Source: an uncultured bacterium
Lineage (GTDB): Bacteria; Muiribacteriota; UBA9980
Length of the DNA stretch: 64,000 nt
Direction: 5' to 3'
Assembly: GCA_964551445.1 (NCBI GenBank)
Contig: CAZKCG010000013.1
Coordinates: 23,358 to 87,357, forward strand
This document shows positions 39,935 through 43,921 of this stretch, in pieces. A model generated the notes under the pieces. It did not search any database. It worked only from the letters and a program-made list of their open reading frames with translations, and had not been told where the DNA came from. How positions within the stretch are numbered: the first letter of the stretch is position 1; each line of letters begins with the position of its first letter. The translations under genes and the position numbers were made by a program.

Positions 39935-42900
39935 TCATTCAAAAAAAACTAACTGATCGGTCTGCGGAAGCGCCTTGAGAGTTCCCATGGTCGATAGAAC
40001 TTCTATTACGTTTTTCGAGGCTTTTGTCCTGTCCTTGAAATCTTCTATGGATACGAAATCGGATTTCTGGGCTTCCTCGAAAATTTTATGAGCGACCACG
40101 CCGCCAAGTCCCTGCACCGAGTTGAACGGGCATATCAGGCCGTCGTTGGTTTCTTTATTTATGGTGAAGTTGAAAGCCTTTGATCTATAAAGATCGACGG
40201 GATAAAATTTTATGCCGCGCGCCATGGCTTCCAGCACGACCTCCATTATCACGTATTGTTCGTTCTCTTTGGCCGTCGCTTCCTTGCCTTTCGCTTTCGT
40301 GTCGTTCATGGTGTTTGCGACATATTCACGGCCTTTTAAAACCGTACCCGCGTCGAACGCGGAGAGACCTTTCGTCGAAAAATATGTCGCGTAAAAAGCG
40401 AGCGGATGGTTGACCTTGAAATAGGCTATTCGAAAGGCCATCATGACATAAGCCGCAGCGTGGGCTTTCGGGAACATATATTTTATCTTGTTGCACGAAT
40501 CGATATACCACTGTGGTATATTGTGTTTCTGCATTTCGGCGACCATATCCGGTTTCAGGCCCTTTCCTTTTCTGACGTTCTCCATTATGTTAAACGAGAG
40601 AAGCGGCGGCATGCCGTGTTCCAGAAGATAGTTGATTATGTCGTCGCGCACGGATATAACTTCGGAGAGCTTCGCGTTCCCGTTTTTAATATACATCTGG
40701 GCGTTATTGAGCCAGACGTCGGTGCCGTGCGACAGGCCCGATATTCGAACGAGTTCGCCGAATGTTTTCGGCCTTGTCTCATCGAGCATGCCGCGGACGA
40801 AGGATGTTCCAAATTCCGGTATGCCGAGTGTCCCCAGATTTATTCCGGTGATGTCTTCGGCCTTTATATTAAGCGCGTCAAGGCTTGAAAAAAGCGAAAG
40901 CGTCTGTTTGTCGCCGAATTCGATATCATTGACCGAAAGCCCTGTCAGATCTTCCAGCATTTTTATGATGGTCGGGTCGTCATGTCCCAGAAGGTCGAGT
41001 TTCAAAAGTTTTTTATCGATGGCGTTATAATCGAAATGCGTCGTTATCGTTCCGCCGTTTCTGTCATTGGCCGGGAAATTCACTGGAGTGAACTCATGGA
41101 TATCACGGCCCATTGGAACGATCATGATGCCGCCCGGGTGCTGGCCGGTGGTTTTTTTGACGCCGCTGCAGCCTATGGCTAGCCGGTTCATTTCAGCCGG
41201 CCGTTTATTGACGTGGCGCTCTTCCAGATACGCTTTAACGAAGCCGAACGCTGTCTTATCGGCGATAGTGGATATGGTTCCGGCGCGGAAGACGTTGTTT
41301 TCGCCGAATATCACGCCGACGTATTCATGAATTCGCGGCTGATAGTCGCCGGAGAAGTTAAGATCGATATCGGGCGTCTTGTCGCCGTCGAATCCGAGGA
41401 AGACCTCGAAAGGTATTTTCTGTCCGTCCTTTTTCAACTTCGCGCCGCATTTGGGGCAATTCTTGTCGGCAAGATCGAAGCCTGAATTGAGAGGCAGGTC
41501 CTCGAAAAATTCGGAATATTTGCATTTTTCGTCTTTGCAGTAATAGTGCGGCGGCAGCGGGTTCACCTCGGTGATGTTGGTGAAGGTCGCGACGAGCGAA
41601 GAACCAACGGATCCTCGCGAACCGACCAGGTAGCCGTCGATCATGGATTTTTTGACCAGTTCGTGCGCTATAAGATAAAGCGTCGCGAAACCGTTTTTAA
41701 TGATGCAGTTCAATTCGTGCTCGAGGCGTTTTTTGACCGGCTCGGGGAGCGGATCGCCGTATTTTTTTATCGCGTTCTCCCATGACATATCTTTGATCTT
41801 ATCCTCGGCGCCTTCCATGACGGGGAACGCGTCGTCCTTGGGTATCGGGATAAGATCGCCGATCATGGCCGCCACTTTTTGAGGATTTTCGATGACGACC
41901 TCGTTAGACGCCGCCTCGCCGAGGTATGAAAATTCTTTGAGCATTTCTTCAGTGGTCGGAAAATAAAGCGGGCAGGCGTTTTCTACGTTATCGAACTTCT
42001 GTCCGGCGAATAATATCTTTCTGAAGATCTCGTCCTCGGGATTGAGGTAATGCATATCGGAAGTCGCGCAGACCGGCTTTCCGAGTTTTCTGCCGAGTTC
42101 GTAAATGCGCGTATTCAAAGCGACCAGGTCTTTTTCAGACTTGAATTCTTCAGGCATTTTTTCCATAAAGAATGAATTATTTTTGATCGGCTGTATCTCA
42201 AGGTAGTCGTAAAAATTCGCGACCGCTTCCATTTCTTCGTCGCTTTTTCCGCCCACCATGCCGCGTATGAGTTCGCCCGCCTCGCAGGCCGAGCCGAGTA
42301 TGAGGCCTTCGCGGTGTTTCGTGAGTTCGGCTCTTGGAATGCGCGGCCTTTTATGAAAATAACTGATGTGAGAGGCCGATACGAGTTTATAAAGATTTGT
42401 GATGCCGGCCTGCGTCGCCGCGAGAATTATGATGTGATGAGGCGAAGGGACCTTGACTTTTTTTTCGTTATCATTTTTATTGAGAAGCGCCGTAGAATCC
42501 TCGATGAGATAGCCTTCCATGCCGAATATGGGTTTTATTTTGTTGTTCTTCGCGGCTTCCGCGAATTCAGGAAAGCCCTGAACCACGCCGTGATCCGTGA
42601 GAGCGACGGCGGAATGTCCCCATTTGGCGGCAAGTTTCACGTAATTTGAGATCTCGGTCATTCCGTCCATGGAGGACATTTTAGAGTGGGCGTGCAGCTC
42701 GACCCTTTTTTTATCCGCGGTATCTTTGCGTTCCGGCATTTTTCCGATGTTTACGTCATTGACCATTATTATGTGGTCTTTTTCAAATTGGTCGAACTTC
42801 ACGTTTCCGAGGACCTTTACAACCATTCCGGCTTTGAGCTTGATATCGGCTTCGGGGCTCGCGAATATCTTACAGACTATGGTATCGCTAAGATCGCTGA

Positions 42901-43921
42901 CGGAAAATGAGACGAGTTTTTTGCCGCTTTTGATAAGCCGCATATCCGAAGCTACGATAATGCCTTCGACCATCACGTTCTTGGCTTCCTCATATATTGA
43001 GTTCACTTTTGAAGGATTTAATTTATCGGGTATCTTTCGCCCGAAAAACACGCCTTCTTCCTTAGGGCCGGTATCGGGGGGCCTGGAAGACTGATAGTTC
43101 TGTTTCTGATAAGGCTGCGCGGCCTTCGGGGCGCTTCCCGGAATAATGTTTGAAGGAGGCCTTTCCGCGTATTCCTTTCCGTTGGTTATGATGATGCCGT
43201 TTCCGCTTGTATTCGCGTCTTTCGGTAACGGGTTTGAACCGCCGCCGTTAGAGGCCGAGTTGGTTTGAACCGGATCGCTGATGACAGCGCCGCCGTTATT
43301 TACGCCGTTGCCGTTAGAAACGCCGCCGTTGGGTTTTTCACCGGCGTCAGTATAGGCGAAACTATCCATTGTTTCGGCCTGAAAAGTGCTTCTGTCGATG
43401 AACACGCGGCAGTCCATGCCGAATTTTTCGGATATGTATTTTTCGATGTTTTTGTCGGCCTGTCTGTCTTTTAAAGTATAAAATCCGGTTTCGTGGCCGA
43501 TCTCGACCCTGACGGTCTTTTCGTTGAAAAGGGAGGCTTTCGCCATTGGAAGCCATACCTGGCAGGCTGGCGTCGCTTTTATCACGTATGCCACTATGTC
43601 GTCCCAGAGTTCGGCGATGATGCGCTCAAGGTCGATGCGGCTTTCAAAATTGATATCGAAATTGACCGAGCTTAACCCCGGAAAAATTTTTTTGAAATAG
43701 CTCTGAAGCGGCAGAAGGTCCTTTGAGCTTGTAATTTCATTCGTTTTCAGGCTTATATTAAGTTCCCGGTGGTCCGGTAAATATTCAAGATGGTAAAAAT
43801 CGCAGTTCAATATCCTGGTCCTGCATTCATCGCTGAGATTGCAGTTTTTGATATGTTCTAAGATCTTGTCCTTGCTCTTTGGCGAGATCAAAAGCCTCGT
43901 GCCGTTCTGATTATCCTTCAT
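39935..43921 (-). CDS. polC: DNA polymerase III alpha subunit, PolC type, without the internal 3'-5' exonuclease domain
   Basis: Collinear with Firmicutes-type PolC. PHP domain [14 protein letters not shown]...ALTDHGVV...IFGMEGY. PolC Zn module [17 protein letters not shown]...[43 protein letters not shown]. Also [23 protein letters not shown] and [15 protein letters not shown]. See the findings for the missing exonuclease insert. Confidence 0.9.
   Translation of the reverse strand: [1328 protein letters not shown]

Follow-up and report, generated by a model that had tools for sequence, protein, structure and literature searches.

Can a PolC-type replicase dispense with the DnaQ exonuclease usually embedded in its PHP domain and, if so, what removes its errors? 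New antibiotics against Gram-positive bacteria are aimed at PolC, and the embedded domain usually receives the credit for its proofreading. The question was raised by a stretch of 64,000 nucleotides (the window, contig CAZKCG010000013.1 of assembly GCA_964551445.1, positions 23,358 to 87,357) from an uncultured bacterium, in which an uninterrupted open reading frame (ORF) at 39935-43921 of the reverse strand encodes a PolC (DNA polymerase III alpha) of 1328 amino acids (aa). A first-pass annotation, made from the letters alone, had described the product as collinear with Firmicutes-type PolC but lacking the DnaQ insert. It proposed an exonuclease profile search, an inspection of the PHP metal ligands and a survey of related genomes, and envisaged three consequences: proofreading by the PHP domain, an epsilon-like exonuclease acting in trans, or a specialised paralog. 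The reading that we favour, and regard as probable, is that of a single functional replicative polC, naturally devoid of the exonuclease domain (delta-Exo), whose product is proofread by its own PHP domain.

The assignment to PolC was clear. Two NCBIfam models matched the protein above their cut-offs, NF001688 with 1482 bits where 873 are required and TIGR01405 with 1351 bits where 1043 are required, and the order of its Pfam domains agreed with the collinearity described at first. It displayed equivalog-level scores, an N-terminal domain and an OB fold ahead of the PHP domain, and a Pol3 core, but not the DnaQ exonuclease insert that is the hallmark of canonical PolC; we therefore file it under the delta-Exo subgroup. 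Both NCBIfam matches were split in two, the second part starting at aa 480-482, which corresponds to profile position 599 of 1445, so that the exonuclease block of the profile was skipped. Likewise, a Pfam search of the ORF yielded no RNase_T or DnaQ match, even at E<=1.

An alignment of 203 PolCs, made up of the window protein, its homologues in databases and the PolCs of fetched loci, located the difference precisely. The segment delimited by aa 471 and aa 496 of the window protein was strictly bimodal in length: 138 sequences had 8-30 residues there and the other 65 had 209-212. The window PolC displayed 24 residues where exo-containing PolCs have 209-212, and the connector placed by the first-pass annotation at nucleotides 42440-42508 was thus correctly identified as standing in for the exonuclease. 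Related genomes were surveyed in a sample of 61 from the same GTDB phylum, in which f1 denotes the family of the window genome. All 16 PolCs of family f1 were exo-less, as were those of families f5 and f6. The 16 came from independent assemblies, including nine GTDB species genomes, and all had a connector of 22-25 aa conforming to LI[ED]D...K.K.P.P[YH] directly followed by HIIILA. The same junction was found in a genome of the same genus from a different assembly (G030), whose PolC was 90% identical. Exo-less PolCs also occurred on multi-megabase contigs of Pelosinus sp. UFO1, Heliorestis convoluta, Dehalobacter sp. DCM and Thermanaerosceptrum fracticalcis. The exo-less junction is natural and not an assembly artefact, since it is common to all 16 family PolCs from independent assemblies and to 138 of the 203 aligned PolCs.

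The window genome is a metagenome-assembled genome (MAG) of 5.8 Mb in 141 contigs, 95% complete with 5.5% contamination. A PolC protein search found a single PolC in it, to which the Pfam Pol3-alpha model added one DnaE on contig C3; neither a second PolC nor a hidden exonuclease domain was found elsewhere in this 95%-complete genome.

The PHP metal site was examined by the nine-ligand definition of Barros 2013 (Table 1 therein; in Taq H11, H13, D20, H47, E72, H95, C145, D212 and H214), with Taq, Geobacillus kaustophilus (Gka) and E. coli as references. All nine ligands were intact in the window PolC (HHDHEHCDH; residues in the table below), as expected of an active PHP 3'-5' exonuclease, the motif HHDHEH[C/H]DH being what the Venclovas group uses to call a PHP domain 'active' (PMC12926913). 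An AlphaFold2 model of aa 400-705 reached a predicted local distance difference test (pLDDT) score of 92.5 and a predicted TM-score (pTM) of 0.90. The connector was the only low-confidence block within the modelled PHP domain (block pLDDT 68) and is probably a surface loop; a complete PHP fold is predicted despite the missing exonuclease. The best PDB match of this model was Gka PolC, 3F2B (TMq 0.83, root-mean-square deviation 2.8, 311 alignment columns), on which it superposed without any gap for the exonuclease, whereas 449-489 columns were needed for the exo-containing PolC structures 9QPC, 9QRL and 9QRN. Beyond the PHP domain, aa 305-1327 of the window protein were collinear with 3F2B at 1162 bits, and the window connector coincided with the short Gly/Ser-rich junction of that structure. 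Entries 3F2B, 3F2C and 3F2D presumably represent an engineered deletion construct. The Gka structure lacks both the N-terminal domain and the exonuclease (Timinskas & Venclovas 2014, PMC3919608), unlike the window PolC, which is natural and keeps its N-terminal domain. The two further differ at PHP ligand 8, where Gka PolC has N and the window protein D622.

Since the nine PHP ligands, the polymerase aspartates, the Zn module and the clamp motif were all intact, PHP-based proofreading in cis is, from the sequence, the most likely mechanism. PolC would be the main replicase, and its PHP domain, acting as a metal-dependent 3'-5' exonuclease, would remove the errors in cis, as happens in the DnaE1 enzymes of Thermus and Mycobacterium. 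With these the window protein shares a complete HHDHEHCDH site on a polymerase without DnaQ domain. Yet, they belong to the DnaE branch of the C family while the window protein is a PolC, and its exonuclease activity is putative. In C. thermocellum, the single PolC substitution C669Y, which hits the PHP cysteine equivalent to C546 here, has been reported to suffice for a mutator effect of about 30-fold.

Several observations weigh against this reading. The genome is an incomplete and partly contaminated MAG, and a stand-alone DEDDh exonuclease present in all nine family genomes could be the real proofreader. For Gka PolC, with its N at ligand 8, no PHP exonuclease activity was detected (Barros 2013). 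Finally, HHDHEHCDH was invariant in all 203 aligned PolCs, exo-less and exo-containing alike; an intact site as a compensation specific to exo-less PolCs was therefore rejected, and intactness alone is no proof of compensation.

The partner polymerase was examined as well. The DnaE of the window genome (1159 aa, C3:32073-35549, locus L136) and its orthologues in the nine family genomes had a thoroughly eroded PHP site, reading K-Q-R-L-(T/A/S)-R-N-N-Q in 9/9 when aligned by MAFFT and K, Q, R, L, T, H, P/N, C, Y when aligned by HMMER to E. coli alpha. At most one of the nine metal ligands was thus kept, fewer than in E. coli alpha. DnaE-only families of the phylum displayed the full HHDHEHCDH in their DnaE. 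The contrast with delta-Exo PolC Firmicutes was equally marked: among 14 such genomes the DnaE1 carried HHDHEHCDH in ten and the last seven ligands in the other four, whose first two positions lay outside the fetched stretch, so that the site was intact wherever readable, in agreement with published work, against full degeneration in the window family. Between genera of the family, identity amounted to 66-73% for PolC and to 49-50% for DnaE. A PolC standing beside a faster-evolving DnaE with a disrupted PHP site recalls the PolC and DnaE3 pair of Bacillus, with the difference that Bacillus PolC has the proofreading DnaQ domain that the window PolC lacks; that domain also proofreads in trans for DnaE3 (PMC12926913). 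The PHP-dead DnaE might be a short-patch primer extender, like Bacillus DnaE3, or be served in trans by the stand-alone exonuclease.

As for the three consequences envisaged at the outset, the specialised paralog finds no support, this being the only PolC of a 95%-complete genome and better conserved than DnaE; PHP proofreading, with its site intact, and an epsilon-like exonuclease in trans, of which the genome has one candidate, both stay in play.

A second DnaE was recorded in six of the 14 Firmicutes genomes with exo-less PolC (MAGs G061-G066, L204-L209). Its PHP motif was HHDHEHCNH in five and a degenerate HHETQYCPY in one.

The candidate for proofreading in trans does not lie near polC. 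As the first-pass annotation had stated, no dnaQ-like gene occurs in the window; RNase_T domains were found only on contigs C66 and C14 of the genome. The C66 protein (C66:5861-6652, locus L116:1501-2292) is a stand-alone DEDDh exonuclease of 264 aa, composed of a conserved, unannotated N-terminal domain of about 90 aa (KNLGKEKRSLDxLF, HIGDDPRF) and of the exonuclease itself, whose motifs (DIETAG, HNAPFD, H-x4-D) were conserved in nine orthologues. Its recruitment as an epsilon-like subunit by PolC, by the PHP-dead DnaE or by both polymerases is the most serious alternative, although we think it rather unlikely. It combines DEDDh motifs with a DnaQ-family hidden Markov model match above threshold (TIGR00573 'dnaq', 107 bits, cut-off 71.5), it matched PF00929 at 104 bits and even the exonuclease block of the PolC profile (positions 422-591) at 152 bits, and it was kept full-length (57-94% identity) in 9/9 family genomes. 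Moreover, all nine DnaE orthologues are PHP-degenerate, a state that correlates with a separate epsilon (Barros 2013). Yet, its best NCBIfam match was not epsilon but the DEDD-exonuclease family PRK07883, below cut-off, and its close orthologues were confined to Wallbacteria, the nearest relatives elsewhere being proteins of about 270 aa named from Gemmatimonadota, Glassbacteria and Longimicrobium rather than from Firmicutes with exo-less PolC. It was absent from the sister families f5 and f6, whose PolCs are exo-less all the same, and inspection of the neighbouring, unannotated ORFs on contig C66 revealed nothing replication-like. Trans proofreading by this protein can nevertheless coexist with PHP proofreading.

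We also considered whether the C66 exonuclease could be a split-off exonuclease domain of PolC and rejected it, its best match being of the PRK07883 type and its nearest homologues outside Wallbacteria being those from Gemmatimonadota, Glassbacteria and Longimicrobium. As these are not the Firmicutes in which exo-less PolC occurs, it is neither an excised PolC domain nor a protein that tracks delta-Exo PolC. Its SLDxLF stretch might, as a speculation from the residues, be a clamp-binding-like peptide. The other RNase_T domain belongs to a 939-aa frame (C14:62833-65649, L002) in which an N-terminal DEDDh exonuclease precedes a long helicase-like region, an arrangement of the DinG type known from Bacillus; most family genomes had an orthologue, with lengths of 944-991 aa.

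A reversal of roles, in which PolC would be accessory, the chromosome would be replicated by DnaE with an epsilon-like partner and the loss of the exonuclease would reflect a relaxed need for fidelity, appeared very improbable. Timinskas & Venclovas (PMC3919608) raised an accessory PolC for organisms with PolC and DnaE1, all delta-Exo PolCs in their survey occur beside a second full polymerase, and most families of the same GTDB phylum manage with DnaE only. However, across the family it is PolC that is the better conserved of the two and that has retained its clamp motif and catalytic residues together with an intact PHP site, while the PHP site of DnaE is dead; in family f5, the only DnaE-like ORF is barely recognisable (27.6 bits). 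A collapsed junction, a binning artefact or a true exo-containing polC in the missing ~5% of the genome, to which 141 contigs and 5.5% contamination might lend some colour, can practically be dismissed, as the junction is shared by all family members from independent assemblies and short in 138 PolCs, the polC frame is unbroken, the model predicts a full PHP fold and no second PolC was found in the nine family genomes.

Returning to PolC as a naturally delta-Exo replicase, the first-pass annotation was mistaken in stating that no such lineage had been described. The architecture itself is already known, published in 2013/14: Timinskas & Venclovas (NAR 2014, PMC3919608) catalogued 6% of PolCs as devoid of the exonuclease insert. 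With the exception of a single additional copy in Thermotogae, these came from Clostridia and Negativicutes, and their partner was always DnaE1. Among their PolC+DnaE1 systems, 16% of PolCs had no internal exonuclease (Table 2, PMC3919608). The window PolC resembles these in its NTD-OB-PHP-Pol3-HhH organization (NTD, N-terminal domain; HhH, helix-hairpin-helix) without exonuclease insert, in its conserved PHP metal site and in the presence of one DnaE alongside, and its connector occupies the same position as in PolCs of Heliobacterium, Heliorestis, Dehalobacter, Pelosinus, Peptococcaceae, Syntrophomonadaceae and Oscillospiraceae. It is an exo-less orthologue with a conserved PHP site that the tree places among exo-less clades, but it has neither a host among Clostridia or Negativicutes nor a PHP-intact DnaE1 partner. 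The host is of Wallbacteria/UBP16 type and not a member of the Firmicutes, the linker joining the N-terminal domain to the OB fold is expanded, and the family has its own stand-alone DEDDh exonuclease.

Phylogenies were built with FastTree (203 sequences) and with IQ-TREE (LG+G4+F, 1000 ultrafast bootstraps, 71 sequences). Exo-less and exo-containing PolCs were interleaved in both. The trees were midpoint-rooted and the sample was biased towards the query; Fitch parsimony on the FastTree tree counted five changes of exonuclease state, each of which may be a gain or a loss. Well-supported switches included those that separated P0093 from L011/L014 (95), P0094 from L031/L038 (99) and P0064 from an exo-containing clade (100). 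The PolCs of f1 and of f5/f6 formed a single clade (bootstrap 100), exo-less throughout and adjoining exo-less PolCs of Bacillota MAGs. The exo-less state probably predates the split of the PolC clade common to the window family and its two sister families, and represents one of several independent exonuclease switches in the history of PolC.

Labels on the nearest PolCs and on the family genomes read Candidatus Wallbacteria, 'bacterium UBP16_UBA6123' or unclassified bacterium; Wallbacteria and Riflebacteria are treated in the literature as diderm Terrabacteria. Among the 61 genomes, PolC occurred only in families f1, f5, f6 and f7, the remaining families having DnaE1 only, together with a DnaQ of about 207 aa. 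This distribution suggests either that a polC already devoid of the exonuclease was acquired horizontally in ancient times or that most of the phylum has lost polC. The single f7 genome (G007) encoded an exo-containing PolC (G007:C268:6692-9295, L170), the only one in the phylum sample. Given the 5% contamination of this genome and the several PolC fragments in it, the exo-containing PolC may be a binning contaminant.

Family f5 was represented with exo-less PolC by G005 and G012 (example loci G005:C45:42045-45005 and G005:C59:4753-5373). A genome-wide search for an RNase_T-family domain in the f5 genomes with exo-less PolC found none, which leaves PHP as the only recognisable proofreader there. 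Besides PolC, the sole Pol3-alpha match in G005 was a very divergent DnaE-like ORF (27.6 bits, 962-aa frame), and G012 displayed no other Pol3-alpha match. Both genomes come close to a replication system that is 'PolC-only, PHP-only', which departs from the rule that a clear DnaE is present in every bacterium.

What goes beyond the publications consulted here is the non-Firmicutes host of Wallbacteria/UBP16 type, the PHP-dead DnaE and the family-specific DEDDh exonuclease. Three configurations of polymerase III have been catalogued, DnaE1-only, PolC+DnaE1 and PolC+DnaE3. We tentatively propose, as a possibility somewhat short of even, that the window family represents a fourth, in which an exo-less PolC with PHP as sole proofreader in cis would be combined with a PHP-dead DnaE and a lineage-specific, stand-alone DEDDh exonuclease with a novel N-terminal domain, newly recruited as epsilon. 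In this view, the exonuclease was already missing from PolC when a diderm lineage outside the Firmicutes, with DnaE1-only relatives, would have acquired it. More generally, natural exo-less PolCs indicate that a PolC-type replicase can dispense with the DnaQ domain, and they bear on the question whether the PHP domain of PolC truly proofreads. As the second polymerase here has no functional PHP, the only sources of fidelity left are PolC-PHP or a single identifiable stand-alone exonuclease, which makes this lineage a cleaner test case than exo-less Firmicutes. The occurrence of exo-less PolC is also extended to a diderm candidate phylum that is mostly DnaE1-only, a point relevant to the spread of two-polymerase replisomes.

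Table. Organization of polC and its product; coordinates refer to the window.
Feature	Coordinates	Strand	Evidence
polC, natural delta-Exo PolC-type alpha, 1328 aa	39935..43921	-	ORF, translation, NCBIfam, collinearity with 3F2B
PolC N-terminal domain, aa 1-189	43355..43921	-	Pfam PF11490 DNA_pol3_a_NII at aa 106-187
Low-complexity G/P/N/S-rich linker, aa 190-304, N-terminal domain to OB fold	43010..43354	-	
OB fold, aa 317-390	42752..42973	-	Pfam PF01336
PHP N-terminal part, aa 408-471, ligands H410, H412, D419, H444, E469	42509..42700	-	Pfam PHP
24-residue connector, aa 472-495, at canonical DnaQ exonuclease site	42437..42508	-	Alignment of 203 PolCs
PHP C-terminal part, aa 496-~700, ligands H496, C546, D622, H624	41822..42436	-	
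Pol3 palm/thumb region, aa 708-980	40982..41800	-	Pfam PF07733
Fingers domain, aa 982-1130	40532..40978	-	Pfam PF17657
Tandem helix-hairpin-helix domain, aa 1236-1319	39965..40216	-	Pfam PF14579
Beta-clamp-binding-type motif QLVFF, aa 1323-1327, C-terminal	39941..39955	-	Read from sequence

Alignment of the N-terminal domain to the other family PolCs began at aa 4-8, and the Pfam PHP match covered aa 408-571. Landmarks of the palm/thumb region were the Zn module (~aa 794-830) and the catalytic aspartates in PDIDLNF (from 850) and LDLLGHDD (from 975); the aspartate motifs and the Cys4 Zn module closely matched the aligned Gka PolC sequence. The protein ends in QLVFFE, where other PolCs display QLSLF, QMALF or QLCFF.

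The linker preceding the OB fold had been located at ~43050-43350 by the first-pass annotation, rightly so, and spans aa 190-304. Its composition (slice aa 190-305, 115 aa) was dominated by G (17), P (14), N (14) and S (11). All family members had a linker of 71-141 aa, whereas the median in other PolCs was 50 aa. An origin by tandem repetition was considered and rejected, as none was found in the linker DNA.

The classical Firmicutes synteny polC-rimP-nusA-infB was absent at the window locus. Downstream of polC (36768-39865) lie two ORFs of 273 and 742 aa without Pfam match, and upstream (43965-46115) are genes for an LPG_synthase_C-like protein (326 aa), a GNAT protein (176 aa) and a radical-SAM protein (218 aa).

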